DNA of 64,000 nt from Escherichia coli (GCF_024298765.1 NZ_CP101210.1), one strand, 5' to 3'; shown: positions 39,651-49,670, counted from the first letter of the stretch. Notes: generated from the sequence alone by a model not told the origin. A program made the numbers and translations.

Positions 39651-41402
39651 ATGATTCAGGACGCTTTTGTGCGCCAGCGTGCGCGACAACTTTACTGGCA
39701 GGGTTATCCGCCCGCAGAAATATCACGTCTGATGGGAATAAACCCGAACACGATTTATGCGTGGAAAAAACGCGACCAGTGGGATGAAACGCCACCCGTG
39801 CAGCGTGTCACGCAATCCATTGATGCGCGCCTCATCCAGCTTACTGAAAAACAGAATAAAACAGGCGGTGACTTCAAGGAAATAGACCTGCTGACACGGC
39901 AGCTTAAAAAGCTGCATGATGGCCAGCCGGATGTGATTGCCGCAGGAAAGAAAGGCCGGGCGAAAAAACTCAAAAATCATTTCACGCCGGAACAGATTGC
40001 CGCACTGCGGGAAAAAATCATCAGCAGGCTGGAGTGGCATCAGCGGGGCTGGTTTGACTCCCTGACCCTTTGCAGGGAAGCCGGGATACGTAACAGGATG
40101 ATCCTGAAATCCCGACAGATTGGGGCGACCTGGTATTTTGCACAGGAAGCACTGCTGATGGCGCTGCGTGACGATGTGGTGCAACCTTATCAGCGTAACC
40201 AGATTTTTTTGTCTGCGTCGCGTCGTCAGGCGTTCCAGTTTAAAAGCATTATTCAGAAGGCCGCGGCTGAAGTTGATGTGGAGCTGAAAGGGGGCGATAA
40301 AATCATCCTCTCCAACGGCGCAGAGCTGCATTTTCTCGGCACTTCTGCTGCGTCGGCACAGTCCTATACGGGCAATTTTTATTTTGATGAATTCTTCTGG
40401 GTCAGTCGCTTTGCTGAACTGCGCAAGGTGGCTGGCGCTATGGCAACCCTCAGCGGACTGCGGCGCACCTACTTCTCCACGCCATCCACCGAAACGCACG
40501 AGGCATACGCCTACTGGAACGGCGACCGCTGGAACGAGAAAAAGGCCACGCATAAACGCCAGCGTTTTTCTGTGGACTGGAAAACGCTGCATAACGGGCT
40601 TATCTGCCCTGACCGGACGTGGCGGCAAATTGTCACGCTGGAAGATGTGGTTAATCACGGCTGGAAACACACCGATATTGATGAAATTCGTGATGAAAAC
40701 ACCGAAGACGAGTTCCTCAATCTCTATATGTGTGAGTTTGTCCGCGAAGGGGAATCGGCATTTAACCTGAATATCCTGATTGGCTGTGGTGTTGACGGAT
40801 ACGACGACTGGAAAGACTGGAAACCTTTTGCTCCCCGCCCGATGGGGAATCGCCCGGTATGGATTGGGTATGACGCAAATGGCAGCAGTGGCAACGGCGA
40901 CAGCGGCGCTGTGTCCGTGGTGGTTCCTCCGGCTGTTCCTGGTGGCCGTTTTCGAACGGTGGAGACGCGACGCGTTCAGGGGCTGGAGTTTGAAGAACAG
41001 GCCAGAGTCATTGAAGAGTTCACGTGTCGCTACAACGTGGAACACATCGGCATTGATGTGACGGGCGGGAACGGGGAGGCTGTTTATCAGATAGTGAAAC
41101 GGTTTTTCCCTGCCGCTATTCCGTACACCTTCACGCTGTCATCAAAACGGTCGCTGGTACTGAAAATGCTGCAAATAATGCGTGCAGGGCGGTGGGAATA
41201 CGATCGCGCCGAACGCGAGCTGGTCGCGGCCTTTAACGCCGTGCGTAAGGTGAAAACACCGGGCGGCTTTATCACTTACGAAACGGACCGCGCGAGGGGG
41301 ATCAGCCACGGCGACCTTGCGTGGGCAACCATGCTTGCTGTCATTAACGAACCAATTGGCGGCGAAGGAGAAAACGAGCGTTTCACGGTTATGGAGTTCT
41401 GA
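39651..41402 (+). CDS. Terminase large (ATPase) subunit gpP
   Basis: 583 aa with conserved N-terminus RARQLYWQGYPPAEISRLMG. Confidence 0.9.
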   Translation: MIQDAFVRQRARQLYWQGYPPAEISRLMGINPNTIYAWKKRDQWDETPPVQRVTQSIDARLIQLTEKQNKTGGDFKEIDLLTRQLKKLHDGQPDVIAAGKKGRAKKLKNHFTPEQIAALREKIISRLEWHQRGWFDSLTLCREAGIRNRMILKSRQIGATWYFAQEALLMALRDDVVQPYQRNQIFLSASRRQAFQFKSIIQKAAAEVDVELKGGDKIILSNGAELHFLGTSAASAQSYTGNFYFDEFFWVSRFAELRKVAGAMATLSGLRRTYFSTPSTETHEAYAYWNGDRWNEKKATHKRQRFSVDWKTLHNGLICPDRTWRQIVTLEDVVNHGWKHTDIDEIRDENTEDEFLNLYMCEFVREGESAFNLNILIGCGVDGYDDWKDWKPFAPRPMGNRPVWIGYDANGSSGNGDSGAVSVVVPPAVPGGRFRTVETRRVQGLEFEEQARVIEEFTCRYNVEHIGIDVTGGNGEAVYQIVKRFFPAAIPYTFTLSSKRSLVLKMLQIMRAGRWEYDRAERELVAAFNAVRKVKTPGGFITYETDRARGISHGDLAWATMLAVINEPIGGEGENERFTVMEF

Positions 41403-42448
41403 TGAGCAGAAAAAATAAAAAAGTGCGCATGAGTTCACGCATTGATCTCGCTGATGCGCTCAGGAAAGAATCATCGCTCAGTGCATTCACATTTGATGGT
41501 CCTTATCGCCTGACCGGGCATGACCTGCTGGACAATATGTACTGTGCTGATAACGGGCGGTGGTATGAAACCCCGGTGGACTGGTACGGTCTGGCAAGAG
41601 CCGCCCGGCAAACGTCCTGGCATCAGTCTGCGCTTTACTTTAAGCGCAATGTATTACTCGGTTGCTACATCCCGCACCCGCTGCTTTCCCGGCAGGATTT
41701 CTCGGCGCTGGCGCTGGACTGGTTTGTGTTCGGTAACGCATTCCTTGAGCTTCGGAGCAATATGCTCGGCGAACCGCTTAAATTACGGCACGCCCTGGCG
41801 AAATACATGCGACGCGGAAGCGATCTTGAATCATGGTGGTATGTGCAGGATGGCAAGGACGCGTTCCAGTTTCGCCCTGGCAAAGTGTGCCACCTGATGA
41901 ATCCGGATATTAACCAGGAAATCTACGGCATGCCGGAATATCTTGGCGCATTACTCTCGGCCAGCCTTTCTCATTCGGCGGACATGTTCAGAAAACTGTA
42001 CTACGACAACGGATCCCACGCCGGGTGCATCATCTACATCGGTGCAGCGCAGGTAAACCGCGAAAGCATGGACTCCCTGAAAGAAACGTTACAGGGTGCG
42101 CGTGGTGGTGGTGCATTTAAAAACGTGCTCATTCATGCGCCCAACGGGGGCAAAGAAGGGGTGCAAATTTTGCCGTTCCAGCAGATCACCGCAAAAGATG
42201 AGTTCATGAATGTTAAGGCGGCATCCCGTGATGATGTGCTGGCTGCGCACCGCGTTCCGCCGCAACTGATGGGGGCGATGCCGGGCGAAAAAAGTGCGTT
42301 TGGTGATGTGGAGAAGGCCGCGCGGGTTTACGCAATTAACGAGCTGATGCCCGTCATGGAGGCCATGAAGCACATCAATGACTGGCTTGGCGAAGAGGTG
42401 ATCCGCTTTAACCCTTACGCACTGTTAGACACCCAGCCCACATCCTGA
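41402..42448 (+). CDS. Portal protein gpQ
   Basis: 348 aa overlapping the P stop (ATGA), as in the P2 P-Q operon. Confidence 0.9.
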   Translation: MSRKNKKVRMSSRIDLADALRKESSLSAFTFDGPYRLTGHDLLDNMYCADNGRWYETPVDWYGLARAARQTSWHQSALYFKRNVLLGCYIPHPLLSRQDFSALALDWFVFGNAFLELRSNMLGEPLKLRHALAKYMRRGSDLESWWYVQDGKDAFQFRPGKVCHLMNPDINQEIYGMPEYLGALLSASLSHSADMFRKLYYDNGSHAGCIIYIGAAQVNRESMDSLKETLQGARGGGAFKNVLIHAPNGGKEGVQILPFQQITAKDEFMNVKAASRDDVLAAHRVPPQLMGAMPGEKSAFGDVEKAARVYAINELMPVMEAMKHINDWLGEEVIRFNPYALLDTQPTS

Positions 42449-42870
42449 CGCGCTTCGCTTGTCTGCTGCTTCGCCGGGGCATAAAAAATTTATGCCCCGA
42501 CTCTCCAGCTCCTGTATCAGTCAGATAATTTCACGACGCTTTCCTGCTGATTGCCATCATCGACAGTCAGACTCTTACGCAATCCCACCGCGTTGACTGC
42601 ATGTTCTCGCCGTCTCAGTGCGATTTTGACGGCCTTACCTTTCACCCCATCAAATCAAAAGCCCTCACGTCTTTTTCACGCTCAGCGTGAGAAATACAGC
42701 CATTCTGTTGTGTCGCTGCGACATCGTTCAGGGGATGCTATTTACCCCCTGAAACGCGGGCTGTTCCCCCGTCACCTGCGCGCAGAAAAAATGCGTTTTT
42801 TTGTGCACGCACGGATCCTTGACGGATCCAGCCACCATGCGGGCCGGAAGGGCAAAAAGTCGTTCAAAAA

Positions 42871-42909
42871 AATTGTGCAAATTTGTGCACTATTGTGCAT
42901 TTGTATAGT
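42871..42909 (+). promoter_or_regulatory. Iterated TTGTGCA repeats and candidate -10 (TATAGT) upstream of the cargo operon
   Basis: aaTTGTGCAaatTTGTGCActaTTGTGCAtttgTATAGTg: three copies at about 10-11 bp spacing followed by a -10-like hexamer. Confidence 0.4.
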
Positions 42910-42978
42910 GAAAAAAATATAGCAGAAAGTATACTTAGCGCCTTGTGGGCTACGTTAACTTTGCAGGAACATTTGGAA

Positions 42979-44358
42979 ATGAAAAAAATCAATAAAGAAG
43001 ATTCTAAAAGAACCTTTTTACGTGGATGGTTGCGATTTCTTCGTAGCGTTGAGAGAGCTAAGAAAAAAAAGCCTGCGCAAGAGAAAAATGGTAGTCTTCG
43101 TTTTTCCGATGAAACAACTCCTGTCCAAAACCAAGTCGCTACGTTCATTGAAAATATATCGATTATAAAAGAGTATGACTCATCAATTCTTCGTCGTGAC
43201 GCAGAGAAGATATTAATACCTAAATATTTTGACTTATATGACAATCCAGAGAAATCTCTGCTATTTATTAGTGCAGCCACAAAATTAATTGCAAGAGGTA
43301 AATGGAAATCATATATTTTTGATTACAAGAAAAACAAAAAACACTGTCTTGGTCTTGAGTGTCTATTAGGTGTTGCTCTTACAGCAGCAAGGCAAAGTAA
43401 TATAAATTTCAAAGATACGATGATTCAGATTAATGGTATCTACCCTAAAGATGAACAGTATCTTGAAATTATCAGGGATGTCGGGCTTGTAAAAGAGATT
43501 AGTAATGCTGCACCAGGTAAAGTTCTGGACTCTACTGAAGCATCGAAAAAAGCGAATCCGAAGAAACGAATCTTCTCTGCTGATAGTATCGGAAAGGAGA
43601 ATGCTTCTGCCTTTGCCCATGACAGAAAAAATGTCACTGCTGAAAAATTTACCGCATACATAAACGAATGCTTAAATGATCATAATTTAAAACTTGTACA
43701 TGAGGCAGAAAAGCATTTAACTTCCTGCATGGGGGAACTCCTTGATAATGCGGAGCGGCATTGTGGGTTAGAGCAACGCCCACGCTGGTATTTGAGAGGT
43801 TTTGTTAATAATAACGTACGAAACCCCATATGTGAGTTGGCTGTTTTCAATTTTGGGAAAACTATCAGCGAAACTTTTGATAATTTACCTGAGGATCATT
43901 TTTCATTAAGTCAACAAGTTAATCCATACATAAATAAGCATATTAAGAAAAAGGGTATGTTTAAGGAAGGATTAACAACAGTAGCGGCCTTGCAAGGGCG
44001 GGTGAGTTGTAAAAACGAGAAAGAAACTGACAGTTCTGGCACCGGAACAATTGAATTATTGAAGTTATTTCAAGATATGCATGATAATCTTAAAAAAATG
44101 GGAAGAGATATTAAAGGTGGGATAAAAATGACTTTAATATCTGGTAGTACTCATATTAACTTTGATGGATCATATAAATTAAAGCAAAGGTTGGTTAATG
44201 ACGAGGAAAGTGACATTTTTACTTACCCTTTTAATGATGTAGGGCTTGAATCTGAACCGGATCGCAACTATCTTAAGCGTATGAAGGATGCTCGATTTCC
44301 TGGAGTTATGATCAATATTCGTTTTCCTCTACCAGAAAACGCCACCCAGCGAACTTGA
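42979..44358 (+). CDS. Hypothetical protein with C-terminal GHKL-type (histidine kinase/SpoIIAB-like) ATPase domain; candidate defence gene A
   Basis: N-box-like ELLDNAERH, G-box-like DSSGTGTIELL, terminal GG...G...FPLP typical of HATPase_c; AT-rich; RBS AGGAAC before ATG 42979 (ORF finder starts at 42883). Confidence 0.55.
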   Translation: MKKINKEDSKRTFLRGWLRFLRSVERAKKKKPAQEKNGSLRFSDETTPVQNQVATFIENISIIKEYDSSILRRDAEKILIPKYFDLYDNPEKSLLFISAATKLIARGKWKSYIFDYKKNKKHCLGLECLLGVALTAARQSNINFKDTMIQINGIYPKDEQYLEIIRDVGLVKEISNAAPGKVLDSTEASKKANPKKRIFSADSIGKENASAFAHDRKNVTAEKFTAYINECLNDHNLKLVHEAEKHLTSCMGELLDNAERHCGLEQRPRWYLRGFVNNNVRNPICELAVFNFGKTISETFDNLPEDHFSLSQQVNPYINKHIKKKGMFKEGLTTVAALQGRVSCKNEKETDSSGTGTIELLKLFQDMHDNLKKMGRDIKGGIKMTLISGSTHINFDGSYKLKQRLVNDEESDIFTYPFNDVGLESEPDRNYLKRMKDARFPGVMINIRFPLPENATQRT

Positions 44359-44368
44359 GGACAGGTAC

Positions 44369-44713
44369 ATGAAAATGGCTGACATCACCATAGATTTCAA
44401 TAAGTTAGTAAAAGATAGTAACAAGAAACTTTTTGCTGGACGTTCTAATGGGCGCCAGGCCTATGATTACTTTAATATAGGGAAATTTTGCACAACCAGT
44501 AATGATAGATTATATCTATTGATCCCCAAGGGAATTGTTGTATCAAGCTCATACTTTCTAGGTATGCTTGAAACGGTTTTGCCGAAATTTTCTTCGCCTA
44601 GCGAATTTTATAGTCGCACTGTACTTGATGGTCGTGAATATAAAGAAGGTATGCTTTCTGAATTAGATAGAGCTGTAAGGAGAGGCTTACATAAAAATGT
44701 TCCCTTCTTTTAA
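44369..44713 (+). CDS. Small protein, possibly STAS/anti-sigma-antagonist-like; candidate defence gene B
   Basis: 114 aa immediately after the ATPase gene; IVVSSSYFLGMLE resembles the STAS core; very tentative. Confidence 0.4.
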   Translation: MKMADITIDFNKLVKDSNKKLFAGRSNGRQAYDYFNIGKFCTTSNDRLYLLIPKGIVVSSSYFLGMLETVLPKFSSPSEFYSRTVLDGREYKEGMLSELDRAVRRGLHKNVPFF

Positions 44714-45506
44714 AAATATTTTTCAAATCAAAATGACAGCGCTGTCTGTCATTTTTTTTATATTCCCCGCAGCTTGCTCTGTGACAGATTTTTCCAATAA
44801 AGAAAACATTGAATGTAATGAGTCACTTTATCCAAACACGCCTTTTTATATTTCCGATTCAGGACTTAGTGGTATATCATCACCGTTTTTGTTATCCGGA
44901 AACCCGAATGATGGCTTGATGTTTTGTGAAAAGGCAAACGACACCTTTCATAAGTTATCTCTGGCAAGGGATAACAAAAAAGATTTATTTACTAATTATT
45001 TCAAAGATGTTCCAAATTCCTATGATATATATAATATTGTAAAGGTTCCGGAAAATGGTCCAGAGTGGATTTCTATTGGCATCTCTTTATTTGCTTTAGT
45101 TTCATCCTTTGTTATTCCTTGTGTTCAACATAGAAAAGAACGTAAAGAAGCTATTAATGAAGGGTATTGGGTAAGAGAAGTAATTATGCCTAAAATTAAT
45201 GGGTTGGCATTCGATGTTGTGCAAAGTTTTAAAAACTCCATGGCATTATCAGAAGAGGAGTTTCTTAGTGTATTCAGTAATACTCTTTTACCAAAACTAG
45301 GAGAGTTACGGGATTCATTATATTTGTTTAATAGTTTTCCAGAATTAAATGCAGATATTGAAAATCTAGAAAGTATTTGTGACTCCTTGGAGGAAGAAGT
45401 TTCCAATCATATAGACTCGCCTAATGAAATAAGAATTTCTGATATATCAATGTTTCATTCCAAATTAATACAGAAATTAATTTTACTTCATAAGAAGATA
45501 GGTTGA
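44697..45506 (+). CDS. Membrane-anchored protein; candidate defence gene C (possible effector)
   Basis: Overlaps gene B by 17 nt; hydrophobic N-terminus (MTALSVIFFIFPAACS) and a central TM helix (WISIGISLFALVSSFVIPCV). Confidence 0.45.
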   Translation: MFPSFKNIFQIKMTALSVIFFIFPAACSVTDFSNKENIECNESLYPNTPFYISDSGLSGISSPFLLSGNPNDGLMFCEKANDTFHKLSLARDNKKDLFTNYFKDVPNSYDIYNIVKVPENGPEWISIGISLFALVSSFVIPCVQHRKERKEAINEGYWVREVIMPKINGLAFDVVQSFKNSMALSEEEFLSVFSNTLLPKLGELRDSLYLFNSFPELNADIENLESICDSLEEEVSNHIDSPNEIRISDISMFHSKLIQKLILLHKKIG

Positions 45507-45551
45507 TTTTCAAGGCCTCCTTATTCCTAGGGCGGCCTTAGCTCTATATTT

Positions 45552-48317
45552 CTATCGTGTTCGATGCAATAAACTGATTTTTTTGCGAGCATGTTTAGTG
45601 GTTTCACTGATTCTCTGTGCGTGCTCTGCGTCGCGGATGGCGCGCAGCATGTCAGAAAGTACGGTAACGGGTGTTTTCATGGTGTTCTGGTCTTGCTGAA
45701 GTGTGGATGCCAGGCGTGCGGCGGCTTCAGGGTCTGATGCCTCTAGTTGTTCCAGATAGCTGGCGACCGGGTTATGGCGGATCTCCGTGCTGCTTACGCC
45801 GTGATTACGACTCAGGCGTTGCCAGAGCTGCGTGATTCGGCTGTCCGGGCGGGTATCCTGTTTGCGTACAATTTCAAATCCCTGCGGTGCAATGATGCTG
45901 CCGCCAACGTACAGACTGCCGCCTCGTAACAGGTGCTGCATCTGCTGTTCACCGATATGCAGGCCGAGAGATTCAGCAGACTCCCGCCATTCTTTAGCGA
46001 GTAACTCGTGGTTATCAGGCAAAGGCTGTGGCTGTTTGCGGCTCTGTGTCCAGTTCTGCATTTCATCACTGCTGTTTTTTGCCTGTTTGTCACGCAGCGA
46101 ACGCATCAGTGCCCGGCGTTCGTGCCGTTTCAGTGAGCGCATCCATTCATTCACGTCAACGCCTTCAGGAAGCCGCGGCCACGGTGCTGGCCGTTCTTCC
46201 GGCTGTTCTGTCCCGTTGTTGTCCGTTTCCTGTACACGGGGACAGTTATTGCCACGAGTCCAAGGGGCGGCAGGGCCGCCCTGAAGGTCAAAACCATTTT
46301 CGCGGGCGCTGTCTTCCGTTTCCGGTTTACGTCTTACCAGTTTCCAGTTATCCGGATGCGTGCACACACGGGAGGATTCCCCGATGAGTGGTGACCAGAT
46401 CCCGTAAATCTGTACGCTCTGTTCGCCGTAATCATTCAGCTCATCTGCGAGGTCGTAGGCGGTGCGAATCAGGTAGTCTTTGCGTGGAACAAGTACGCCG
46501 CCCTGTTTTTCAATGTAGGTGGCAAAACACCCGGCATCGGCGGCAGCGAGTACCGCATCCATTGCGTCATCTTTCAGTCGTTGCGGGCCTTCCGGGTTGC
46601 GTGCCATCTGGCTGGCAAGGCGGCGCAGTTCACGCCACACCTGACGGGAGGGGATGCCAAAGAACTGGAACTGGCGGACCCGATGAAGGCGCGCCCAGCC
46701 GATGGCGCGCTCCACACTCTCGGCCATTGATTTTCCGGTTTCGTGGTCAACGCGTGGCTTGCCCGTTTTCGGGTCGATGCCATCCACGGCGCGGCTGTCC
46801 AGGTTCTTTCCGATGTAGGTCGCGATATAGCTGGTTGGTGTGCCTTTTGAGCCGTCGACATACTCCGCCTTAAAGCGCGGAGTAATATCATTGCCCAGCT
46901 CGTGGCGGTCTTCCTGAATGGCAATATCGCGGGTGATGGCCACGATGCTGTCGATTTCTTCCGGATGAGCAAAGACCATCATATGCCAGTGCACGGTGCC
47001 GTCATGGTGAGGCTCCACCGTGCGGATGCCATACCAGCGAAGACCGTCGCGGTTCAGTTTTTTGCGGACCGCCGCAAAAAACGTGTTAACCAGGTAATCG
47101 CTGGAGTCGCGCATGGTGGCCCCGTTCCATTTGGGATTCGGATGACCGTTCTCTGTTGTGGCGTGGTATTTTGACGGGCAGGTGACAGTCAGAAACACCG
47201 CTTTGTCGCCACGGGCTTCGGCCAGAAGTTCCAGCCCCTTCATGGTGGCCATCATTTCTGCCTTACGGTGAACCGGGTTACTTACTCCCGCGTAATACAC
47301 CGTCTCGAGATCAATCGTGAACCCGTCTTCGTTTTCCAGCATGAAACTTTTCAGGAAATCGCGTGTTTTCTCGCGCTGTGCGCGAAACTCGCTTAACGCG
47401 TCCTGGCTCAAATAGGGCGATGTTTTTCTGGAAACCAGACAGGCGGCGCGGAGTTGTTCTTCTCTCCACTCGCAACGTAACAGCCACAGTTTGCGTTTCC
47501 ACCATTCCGCACAGGTCAGGCGAAGGATTGCGCCCGGCAGCAGTTCTGTGTCCGGTTCGTTCCTCCGGTCTTTGTCTGTTGTCAGTGCGTCATAATGCGG
47601 AGGCATGGCGTGCAAGTGTAACGCCATGCGGGCCAGCATCTGATACGCCTTCAGCGTTACATCCATGGTCAGCTCGCCATCGGTCGCGCCAAAACCATCG
47701 CAGAGTTTTTCGAAGGTGCTGCTGAACATCGCCGCCGTCATGGTGGCCAGCGTCTGTATCTGGTGTTTGTTGAGTTGCGGCAGGTAAAGCAAATCGTCCA
47801 GGCGTTCACGTCCGGCAAGGGACCGATAACCCGGTGTCAGCCAACGGCTGTCGGTGCGGTCCAGACGTACGAATATTTTGCGCAGGGTTCCGCGCGCGTA
47901 GCGTTCAGCCTGCCAGCTCTTTTTGCCTTTCTGACGATCGGATTCCTGTTTTTTGCGCAGGAAAGAGAGGTGGCGGCTCAGAGGTTCACGCAGATAAACG
48001 GGAAGCACCTTCAGTGTGGCAAAAGCACGGGCCACCGGGTCTTGTTCTGTTGCCTGACGCTTGCTGATGATGCTTTGTGCCAGCTTTTCACGCTGTCCGG
48101 CTTCCTCAAGGGATGCCATGAGTTTTTTACCCACGGTGGATTGTGCGAAAAAGGCTTCCTCCTTCGCTTCCTGTTCTTTCCGGGCCTTTTTGTCCGCCTC
48201 AAGGTAGTAACGGATGGCGCGTTGCAGCTCGGTTTCAGTTTCCTGCCTGCGCTCCGTAAATCTGTCCGGATCAATGGCTGGCCGTGGTTCATTCCAGCTC
48301 CATGCAAACTCACTCAT
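45552..48317 (-). CDS. Replication initiation protein gpA (rolling-circle endonuclease), with extended C-terminus
   Basis: About 921 aa; start MSEFAWSWNEPRP overlaps the upstream ORF stop (ATGA); longer than the ~760 aa I recall for P2 A. Confidence 0.8.
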   Translation of the reverse strand: MSEFAWSWNEPRPAIDPDRFTERRQETETELQRAIRYYLEADKKARKEQEAKEEAFFAQSTVGKKLMASLEEAGQREKLAQSIISKRQATEQDPVARAFATLKVLPVYLREPLSRHLSFLRKKQESDRQKGKKSWQAERYARGTLRKIFVRLDRTDSRWLTPGYRSLAGRERLDDLLYLPQLNKHQIQTLATMTAAMFSSTFEKLCDGFGATDGELTMDVTLKAYQMLARMALHLHAMPPHYDALTTDKDRRNEPDTELLPGAILRLTCAEWWKRKLWLLRCEWREEQLRAACLVSRKTSPYLSQDALSEFRAQREKTRDFLKSFMLENEDGFTIDLETVYYAGVSNPVHRKAEMMATMKGLELLAEARGDKAVFLTVTCPSKYHATTENGHPNPKWNGATMRDSSDYLVNTFFAAVRKKLNRDGLRWYGIRTVEPHHDGTVHWHMMVFAHPEEIDSIVAITRDIAIQEDRHELGNDITPRFKAEYVDGSKGTPTSYIATYIGKNLDSRAVDGIDPKTGKPRVDHETGKSMAESVERAIGWARLHRVRQFQFFGIPSRQVWRELRRLASQMARNPEGPQRLKDDAMDAVLAAADAGCFATYIEKQGGVLVPRKDYLIRTAYDLADELNDYGEQSVQIYGIWSPLIGESSRVCTHPDNWKLVRRKPETEDSARENGFDLQGGPAAPWTRGNNCPRVQETDNNGTEQPEERPAPWPRLPEGVDVNEWMRSLKRHERRALMRSLRDKQAKNSSDEMQNWTQSRKQPQPLPDNHELLAKEWRESAESLGLHIGEQQMQHLLRGGSLYVGGSIIAPQGFEIVRKQDTRPDSRITQLWQRLSRNHGVSSTEIRHNPVASYLEQLEASDPEAAARLASTLQQDQNTMKTPVTVLSDMLRAIRDAEHAQRISETTKHARKKISLLHRTR

Positions 48318-48703
48318 GGCTGGTATCCCGTCACGCGCTGCCACTCCTGCGAGAAGAGGGTGGAAAGGCGGTTAAATTCAGCGGTGTATTCACTCAGCGA
48401 GGCACACCCGCCAGCAGTGTGATGCGCCAGCATTGCCGCAAATACGGAGGTCGGGGAGTCGTAATACGCCAGCAGTGATTCGCCATGCGGTGTCAGGCAG
48501 CGCAACGCCAGCCCGTGTGGTGTTAAGTCCACGCGGTAGCAGTCGTCTACTGTGAAATAAAGGGTGTCTGCATTCTCCGGTTTTGTAGTGCGTGCTCTGT
48601 TGTCACGACTACGGATGTAGAGATCAAATAATCCCTGAAGAACGGGAGCCAGACGGGTGTCCTGTGTGCGCACCCATCTTGTGAAGTCATGAGCGTCAAT
48701 CAT
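48314..48703 (-). CDS. Hypothetical early-region protein, translationally coupled to gpA
   Basis: 129-aa ORF whose stop overlaps the A start. Confidence 0.45.
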   Translation of the reverse strand: MIDAHDFTRWVRTQDTRLAPVLQGLFDLYIRSRDNRARTTKPENADTLYFTVDDCYRVDLTPHGLALRCLTPHGESLLAYYDSPTSVFAAMLAHHTAGGCASLSEYTAEFNRLSTLFSQEWQRVTGYQP

Positions 48704-49230: not shown

Positions 49231-49427
49231 TACACCTCCTGGGCGTGTGCGAATACCTCCGCGAATGCGGATTGTTTTTACATTTTCTTATTTAACCTAG
49301 GGTTTTTATTTGCGCTGTTATTCGCCAGTGAAAAAGCGGTCAATCTTTTTTACTGAACGAATAATTCGCATAATCCCAATGGCGCAGACCACCGAAATAA
49401 TCAGAACAAGCCATGAGATAAATATAC

Positions 49428-49670
49428 TCATGCAATATTCCCCAGCTTATACGGTTCAATATGCTCCCCGCATTCTGCGGCACAGATCAGCTCGGAAAGT
49501 TCGTTAAGTGCATCCAGATCATCAGCGTAAAAAGCCACGTCATACAGACTCCGGATTGCCCTGGTTAATGAGTCACGGGCTGCACGTTCAGCATGAGTAC
49601 CTGATGCACTTAAGCGAAAATAAAAACGCTCAAGTGCTTTGTTTATGAGAGTCTTATATTCTTTGCCCAT
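49428..49670 (-). CDS. Hypothetical small early protein
   Basis: 80-aa ORF in the early operon. Confidence 0.35.
   Translation of the reverse strand: MGKEYKTLINKALERFYFRLSASGTHAERAARDSLTRAIRSLYDVAFYADDLDALNELSELICAAECGEHIEPYKLGNIA

Follow-up and report, generated by a model that had tools for sequence, protein, structure and literature searches.

What function does an AT-rich, three-gene operon serve when it sits between the portal gene and the replication endonuclease gene gpA of a P2-like prophage? The gpQ-gpA hotspot of P2 was defined by Rousset et al. 2022, who validated several of its cargos as defence (PMC9122126). We address the question for a cassette in a 64,000-nucleotide stretch of Escherichia coli DNA (GCF_024298765.1, NZ_CP101210.1), called the window below. 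An earlier note on this DNA had described the three genes as a GHKL-type ATPase, a small STAS-like protein and a membrane protein, together forming a candidate novel anti-phage system. Our analysis points to a prophage-borne, three-component candidate for abortive infection that would operate in the manner of a toxin-antitoxin system, similar to VapKSC but with a membrane protein among its components. We put the chance that this reading is right at about even.

Architecture and conservation of the cassette

The operon lies on the plus strand, opposite to gpA, and contains three genes (lengths in amino acids, aa; overlap in nucleotides, nt).

42979..44358, + strand: gene A, candidate serine kinase of the VapK/CapK-like STAS-GHKL type, 459 aa
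44369..44713, + strand: gene B, DUF4325/STAS-like protein, 114 aa, proposed phospho-switch/antitoxin
44697..45506, + strand: gene C, membrane protein, 269 aa, proposed effector, overlapping B by 17 nt

These open reading frames are confirmed at the positions where the earlier note had placed them, and RefSeq calls the same genes (WP_000723541.1, WP_000763711.1 and WP_001548207.1), each as a 'hypothetical protein'. The note's view of the locus as an AT-rich insert at the P2 portal-gpA hotspot also stands: the GC fraction is 0.32-0.39 over 42800-45600 compared with 0.52-0.60 in the flanks, and the neighbours are the portal gene and gpA.

The cassette behaves as a unit. We collected 33 loci with a full-length A homologue, comprising 7 loci around 5 distant assembly homologues and 26 IMG/VR viral contigs, from Enterobacterales, Aeromonas, Vibrio and metagenomes. 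The order A-B-C is kept in 33/33, with B directly after A (hidden Markov model E<=1e-9) and a C-family membrane protein after B. 'Effector swapping' in four loci whose third gene escaped the C model was considered and rejected, as BLAST and motifs place those genes in the C family. The B and C genes overlap or adjoin each other, an arrangement suggestive of coupled translation. About half of the loci occupy the portal-gpA site of P2-like phages in Escherichia, Klebsiella and relatives. Elsewhere, the cassette adjoins HsdR and AAA_15/21 genes in a Vibrio parahaemolyticus island, methyltransferase, HNH/SRA and NERD proteins in an Aeromonas lambdoid prophage, and a type III restriction-modification system in an integrase-flanked island. 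Such neighbouring defence genes would implicate the cassette by association and are not proof of a defence role.

Gene A carries the following features, with conservation counted over an alignment of 45 sequences.

42979..43128, + strand: residues 1-50, polybasic N-terminal arm, with a helix at 6-29
43186..43593, + strand: residues ~70-205, internal STAS-like domain, from structural matches and model secondary structure
43624..44328, + strand: residues ~216-450, SpoIIAB-like GHKL (Bergerat) domain
43735..43761, + strand: N-box ELLDNAERH (E253, N257, H261), invariant in 45/45
43849..43863, + strand: atypical G1 box N291-F-G293-K-T, with N291 and G293 invariant in 45/45
44035..44049, + strand: G2 box S-G354-T-G356-T, with G354 and G356 invariant and T357 in 44/45

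From its N-terminus, the protein thus consists of the basic arm, the STAS-like domain, a linker and the GHKL domain. Its homologues form 59 clusters in Enterobacterales, Aeromonas and Vibrio, none of them annotated. Every homologue begins at MKK, and a longer TTG start at 42883 was rejected on this ground. The N-terminus of roughly 250 aa, which the earlier note had left unassigned, turns out to be largely the internal STAS domain plus the polybasic helix. The STAS assignment draws on structural matches to single-domain STAS proteins (RsbV 8.8, TM1442 8.3, SpoIIAA 6.9 and SiaC 7.1), and a STAS domain N-terminal to a GHKL domain is a feature of VapK/CapK-type kinases. The arm has a mean net charge of +11 over the 45 homologues, compared with about +2 for the remaining protein. 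It stands where CapK has its helix-turn-helix (HTH) domain and may bind nucleic acid.

The GHKL domain has the Bergerat alpha/beta fold and is nearest to the anti-sigma kinases SpoIIAB and RsbW. The motifs that had prompted the ATPase assignment (ELLDNAERH, SGTGT and FPG) exist and are conserved in the 45 homologues, in which E253, N257, H261, W270, N291, G293, G354, G356 and F440-P-G442 are invariant. The N-box, G2 and G3 are colinear with those of VapK, CapK, SpoIIAB and the kinase of a related P4-hotspot system in a motif alignment. In GHKL proteins, the Asn of the N-box (E-x3-N) binds Mg2+, the Asp of the G1 box contacts adenine N6, and the G2 glycines form the hinge of the ATP lid. The G1 box is where A departs from this pattern: VapK, CapK, SpoIIAB and the P4-hotspot kinase have D-x-G-x-G, whereas the A family has N-x-G-x-S/T and has lost the second glycine. 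The identification as a GHKL ATPase is therefore upheld by the fold, the N-box and G2, but not by a canonical G1 box or by a Pfam HATPase_c match. Window A has no match to HATPase_c or HATPase_c_2 at E<=10, and in a family-wide Pfam scan a single one of the 45 homologues matches HATPase_c_2 (E 0.013), the others none. The A-family profile finds nothing among PDB sequences. The sole lead came from PHROGs, where A matches phrog_3364, a family of unknown function, at 2.4e-7 over residues 75-453.

Gene B contains the residue on which a phospho-switch would turn.

44543..44551, + strand: B Ser59-Ser60-Ser61, candidate phospho-acceptor at the N-terminus of helix 60-67

The AlphaFold2 model of B (predicted local distance difference test 89.8) retrieves 51 Foldseek matches in AFDB50 at E<=1e-3, nearly all annotated DUF4325, with TM-scores of 0.5-0.95, most of them about 0.7. 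Pfam DUF4325 itself matches neither B nor 36 close homologues, and the 37 sequences scanned gave nothing relevant. An exhaustive profile search yielded 121 distant relatives, and among 70 of these DUF4325 (PF14213) is the only recurrent Pfam family (3 at E<=1e-3, 7 at E<=0.1). The earlier description of B as STAS-like is thus borne out by fold and by distant relatives. Against PDB sequences, the B-family profile gives AcrIIC4 as its sole match (E 0.36), which is not useful. Close homologues of B form 41 clusters on contigs shared with A homologues, several at adjacent locus tags. Invariant features of the 37 close homologues include L-F-A-G-R-x-N-G and V-V-S59-S60-S61-Y-F-L-G, and position 61 is S or T in 70 of the 71 sequences of the wider family, followed by Phe or Tyr. 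B therefore has a Ser/Thr at a helix N-terminus, equivalent to SpoIIAA S58, CapS S54 and VapS S48; hhalign places B S60 on VapS S48 and B S61 on CapS S54.

Gene C is a membrane protein that overlaps B, as the earlier note had it, with hydrophobic segments at residues 8-33 and 122-145 by hydropathy.

44766..44780, + strand: lipobox-like P-A-A-C27-S closing the N-terminal hydrophobic segment
45060..45131, + strand: transmembrane helix, residues 122-145 (Kyte-Doolittle maximum 2.26; 67% mean pairwise identity)
45135..45503, + strand: helical cytoplasmic domain, residues 147-269 (62% mean pairwise identity)
45165-45191, + strand: juxtamembrane motif YWVREVIMP, opening the cytoplasmic domain

Cys27 is kept in 19 of 20 homologues, in the sequence F-P-A-A-C27-S in the window and as P-T-A-C, L-T-A-C, I-S-A-C or L-T-G-C in homologues. 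The N-terminal segment could instead be an uncleaved first transmembrane helix. Between the two hydrophobic segments, the periplasmic residues 28-115 are hypervariable (28% mean pairwise identity). Distant loci from Vibrio, Aeromonas and others retain the motif [FYW]W-x-[RK]-[EQ]-[VIL]-x-x-P, the transmembrane helix and the helical cytoplasmic domain, while their periplasmic part ranges from about 150 residues down to none. Locus L034 and the P4-hotspot version lack this part altogether, and L006 and L029 have a very short one. C has no match in Pfam, NCBIfam, PADLOC or PDB, and its family profile against PDB sequences returns noise.

The junction between B and C contains a further conserved element.

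44730..44761, + strand: 10-bp hairpin followed by U8, resembling an intrinsic terminator or attenuator and enclosing the AUG of C Met13 (terminator scan)

This hairpin starts 17 nt past the B stop codon, within the first codons of C, and its minimum free energy has a z-score of -2.3. Over a set of 11 diverged loci, pairing holds in 98% of the base-pair cells, compared with 39-67% when it is slid. Compensatory double changes occur in 4 of the 10 pairs, and 0/500 column shuffles reach the observed covariation score. Some of the compensation is achieved through coupled substitutions in the C signal peptide (T14A with V18A; K12R with F21L). A constraint of the pairing on codons would explain the unusual conservation of the signal-peptide core 'KMTALSVIFF'. 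Because the sample is small (11 loci) and the sequences are related, we treat the covariation as suggestive but not conclusive. In addition, neither of the candidate starts of C has a good Shine-Dalgarno sequence. The simplest reading would be an intrinsic attenuator that holds C below A and B, which fits B as an antitoxin and C as a toxin.

A proposed mechanism and its rivals

The cassette is not new to catalogues. Table S5B of Rousset et al. lists P2-hotspot system 19, labelled HATPase_c and DUF4325, with 155 occurrences and the remark '1 TM in protein 3' (PMC9122126). System 19 is the window cassette, with A and B identical and C near-identical. System 69 of the P4 hotspot bears the same label and consists of a kinase, a DUF4325 protein and a protein with one transmembrane segment (PMC9122126). 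Both are catalogue entries that bear neither a name nor a suggested mechanism. Another catalogued candidate, the validated P2-hotspot system Rst_3HP ('hp + hp + hp'), was rejected: the three pFR109 proteins differ, and there is no PADLOC model match at E<=1. Neither the supplements of Vassallo 2022 nor the supplements and text of a 2026 P2/P4 preprint contain the cassette, and deposited phage genomes do not contain it at megablast level.

In the searchable literature, mechanistic work on modules of this kind is limited to that of Chambers et al., EMBO J 2026 (PMC13373217). CapK, with an HTH-STAS-GHKL architecture, is switched on by single-stranded DNA (ssDNA) and phosphorylates a conserved Ser of CapS, a STAS protein with a winged HTH (wHTH) domain (PMC13373217). 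VapK (STAS-GHKL) is inferred to phosphorylate VapS, a STAS antitoxin of about 116 aa, and phosphorylation of VapS S48 would free the PIN toxin VapC; VapKSC gives ~2-log protection against phage Bas42 (PMC13373217). The partner-switching idea of the earlier note matches this system, which has since been characterised. Its claim that the cassette was novel does not hold, given Table S5B and the mechanistic analogue published in 2026. That interpretation is thus partly supported, being right in substance and overstated in novelty.

By analogy with VapKSC, we suggest the following mechanism. In an uninfected lysogen, unphosphorylated B would hold C inactive through the cytoplasmic domain of C. B would be kept in excess over C by the conserved hairpin just past its stop codon and by the weak initiation signals of C. 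A cue derived from infection, with ssDNA or another nucleic acid as the likeliest candidate, might then engage the basic arm and the STAS-GHKL groove of A. Activated A would phosphorylate B at Ser61 (or Ser60), and phospho-B would leave C. Freed C, which we take to be an inner-membrane protein, may damage or depolarise the membrane, and this would stop both the cell and the incoming phage. Our analysis shows the gene order, folds, motifs, strict co-occurrence of A, B and C, hairpin covariation and genomic contexts; the kinase activity, phospho-site, binding of B to C, trigger, toxicity of C and protection against phage are inferred.

Several points weigh against this account. Kinship with VapKSC is faint at the level of profiles, with hhalign E values of 0.14 for the A family against VapK and 0.007 for the B family against VapS. 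In the A-VapK alignment, the N-box and G1 box run colinear; hhalign against single sequences (VapK, VapS, CapS and the P4-hotspot trio) gave low probabilities and was used only for colinearity and residue mapping. A shows no confident equivalent of the ssDNA-contacting aromatic of CapK (W68) and VapK (F54), in a region where MAFFT is unreliable; F84 and W270 are conserved in A, although their equivalence to those residues is not established. ATP-dependent kinase activity of A is not assured, because the G1-box Asp is an invariant Asn. The effector role of C is argued only from position and analogy, since C is unlike any known toxin or pore-former. Cargo at the P2 hotspot is not always defensive, as about a quarter of its loci carry partition systems and about 2% cdt toxins, and systems 19 and 69 are absent from the tables of tested systems in the same study (PMC9122126). 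The Pfam and PADLOC searches that the earlier note had proposed also came back empty: Pfam returned neither HATPase_c nor STAS/DUF4325, leaving these assignments to structure and profiles, and PADLOC gave nothing for A, B or C. NCBIfam likewise had no match for the three proteins. Pfam and PADLOC scans therefore miss the family entirely.

Among the alternatives, a switch in the style of SpoIIAB/RsbW, the kind that the earlier note had proposed, fares best, and we still think it unlikely. Here A would sequester C or another partner, unphosphorylated B would compete and free C, and phosphorylation would reset the system. The kinship of the A GHKL domain with SpoIIAB and RsbW is what one would look for, as are a B that, like SpoIIAA and RsbV, has a single STAS-like domain, and the strict linkage of A, B and C. 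However, VapK, the closest characterised relative with this STAS-GHKL architecture, has as its target a STAS protein that is the binding partner of the effector, and the cassette lacks a PP2C phosphatase that could return B to its unphosphorylated form. The overlap of the B and C genes also suggests a B:C rather than an A:C complex.

A more radical proposal, to which we give somewhat less credence still, is that the cassette represents a distinct membrane-coupled GHKL/STAS branch. The G1-box Asn would retune A to a non-adenine nucleotide or make it a ligand-gated pseudokinase, and C would be a phage sensor working from the outside in, its hypervariable, lipoprotein-like periplasmic domain coupling envelope events such as adsorption or DNA entry to the cytoplasmic switch. 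This contrasts with a simple toxin released by DNA damage.

Two narrower alternatives, each taking up a single protein, strike us as improbable to a similar degree. First, C might be a sensor or exclusion factor whose periplasmic segment detects or blocks adsorption or DNA injection, with A and B transducing the signal, regulating C or hitting phage or host targets. Membrane proteins and lipoproteins are common among prophage superinfection-exclusion factors, and the segment of 28% identity in C lies between the conserved lipobox-like Cys and the conserved core, a pattern typical of conflict surfaces. Yet the loci with a short or missing periplasmic part (L034, the P4-hotspot version, L006 and L029) indicate that the family can do without this part. 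What stays invariant is a core of the transmembrane helix with the cytoplasmic domain, which better fits an effector or an anchor.

Second, A might be a pseudokinase or use a nucleotide other than ATP, acting by nucleotide-dependent binding without phosphotransfer or responding to GTP or another ligand. Substitutions of Asp by Asn in the G1 box disable ATP binding in other GHKL proteins. In A this Asn is found in 45/45 sequences, the second G1 glycine is gone and Pfam HATPase models fail on the domain. The remaining site argues for preserved catalysis, with the Mg-binding N257, E253, H261 and the G2 glycines all invariant, and B keeps its invariant Ser motif at the expected acceptor site.

The least probable of the alternatives is a non-defence stress or regulatory module (envelope or DNA-damage signalling, lysogen fitness or induction control) that happens to occupy the hotspot: the partition and cdt cargos just mentioned, the classical role of GHKL/STAS pairs as stress regulators, the fuzzy line between stress response and immunity noted by the VapKSC authors (PMC13373217) and the silence of defence databases lend it something, but the cassette repeatedly adjoins restriction-modification and other defence genes outside P2 phages, travels as an AT-rich unit between unrelated elements and has in VapKSC a closest relative that protects against phage.

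If the mechanism that we favour, release of C from B by an A-dependent phospho-switch, is validated, the cassette would represent a second effector class for immune modules based on a GHKL-kinase/STAS phospho-switch. The VapK/VapS-type pair of sensor and switch would then be a portable front end, with membrane effectors as well as nucleases among the outputs open to it. Three features offer experimental handles: the invariant G1 Asn in an otherwise intact Bergerat site, the Ser-Ser-Ser of B and the covarying attenuator between B and C.

Boundaries of the cargo and flanking sequences

The cassette and its surroundings are laid out as follows.

42901..45590, no strand: variable AT-rich cargo of the P2-like portal-gpA hotspot, from GC content and homology breaks
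39651-41402, + strand: terminase
41402-42448, + strand: portal
45552-48344, - strand: gpA replication endonuclease
42908..42935, + strand: probable cassette promoter GTGAAA-16-TATACT, from a consensus scan
45527..45546, + strand: terminator-like hairpin 3' of C, between the convergent C and gpA, from a consensus scan only

We compared both cargo junctions against 5,426 complete E. coli genomes. The P2-like backbone common to more than 1,100 E. coli genomes with other cargo stops at ~42900 and restarts at ~45585-45593, which places the swapped cargo at ~42901-45590; the extent of 42868-45550 given in the earlier note was close to this, with its ends somewhat displaced. The full A-B-C cassette is present in 22 of the 5,426 genomes. 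The cassette occupies ~0.4-0.9% of E. coli P2-like hotspots, and related forms occur across Enterobacterales, Aeromonas and Vibrio. The right-hand break (45552-45593) falls within gpA, and the last ~14 codons of the endonuclease are exchanged along with the cargo. No Rfam family matches inside the cargo. The consensus score of the putative promoter is by itself no better than chance; a -10-like GTATACT some 40-50 nt upstream of gene A also occurs in three loci (L014, L015 and L017) whose cassettes are 68-79% identical.

Directly before the ~42900 junction, at 42869-42899, TTGTGCA occurs three times as a direct repeat with a spacing of 10 nt, in part palindromic (GTGCAC), and AAAAAATTGTGCAAAxTTGTGCA also stands 5' of diverged cassettes in L015, L017 and L024. 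The repeats may serve as an operator that controls the expression of cargo, or they may mark a recombination junction. An operator specific to this cassette was rejected, as they are on the backbone edge common to more than 1100 prophages with other cargo. The conserved intergenic region downstream of portal contains two further elements: a 15-nt inverted repeat or terminator-like hairpin, GCGCAGAAAAAATGCGT, followed by a T-run (42777-42811), and two copies of the direct repeat ACGGATCC with 11-nt spacing, overlapping a GGATCC palindrome (42811-42829). The P2/P4 cos core GGCGAGGCGGGGAAAGCAC was not found in the window with up to 3 mismatches, despite the P2-like synteny of terminase, portal, cargo and gpA; the lineage of this prophage presumably relies on another cos sequence. 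Farther along the same prophage, in its early region past gpA, the RefSeq annotation has an SPFH domain-containing protein (L001 10747-11001, or approximately window 49346-49600 by the L001 offset), whose gene may be another accessory or moron gene.

The portal-gpA hotspot holds at least three allelic versions of A-B-C, represented by L015/L016 (A 71% identical), L004/L005/L024 (48%) and L036-L040. In these allelic cassettes, from Escherichia, Klebsiella and relatives, the periplasmic segment of C diverges much faster than the remaining cassette. In a 186-like prophage, the cassette lies between the cI repressor region and the integrase (L006 6001-8340). Because this is a cI-integrase rather than a portal-gpA site, the module moves among distinct phage hotspots.

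Comparison with known systems

One of the systems compared is SiaB/SiaC (DUF1987) from Pseudomonas aeruginosa. A PP2C phosphatase and a diguanylate cyclase are part of SiaABCD; SiaB/SiaC has no sequence relationship to the cassette and no phage context. SpoIIAB/SpoIIAA and RsbW/RsbV supply the best structural matches of the GHKL and STAS domains of A, and their pairing of a Ser kinase with a STAS substrate is alike. However, the cassette is without a sigma factor or PP2C phosphatase, and its candidate kinase has a fused STAS domain. Its output is a membrane protein, and its setting is phage cargo, not a developmental or stress regulon.

CapK/CapS shares the kinase architecture and, as proposed for A and B, the logic of a kinase phosphorylating a STAS Ser. 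CapK has an HTH domain where A has a basic helix. CapS has a wHTH domain, whereas B lacks a DNA-binding domain and is too small for a repressor. CapK/CapS controls a downstream operon, while the cassette brings its own third gene. System 69 of the P4 hotspot has the same layout as the cassette but a canonical D-x-G-x-G and a Pfam-recognisable DUF4325.

VapKSC is closest in overall design. Each is an operon of three genes that runs from a kinase through a small STAS protein (~110 aa) to a third protein, and each is found near defence genes. VapK, like A, has a STAS domain N-terminal to a SpoIIAB-like GHKL domain, and VapS, like B, has a STAS helix that opens with a conserved Ser. The match to phrog_3364 is common to A (2.4e-7), VapK (6.6e-38) and the P4-hotspot kinase (2.8e-52). 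The differences lie in each of the three proteins. In A, an invariant Asn stands where VapK has the G1-box Asp, the N-terminus carries an additional polybasic arm, and the ATP-lid region contains long insertions; B and VapS fall into different PHROG families; and the third gene encodes a membrane protein in the cassette but a PIN nuclease in VapKSC. Because it has no PIN toxin, we regard the cassette as an analogue of VapKSC rather than a member of that system.

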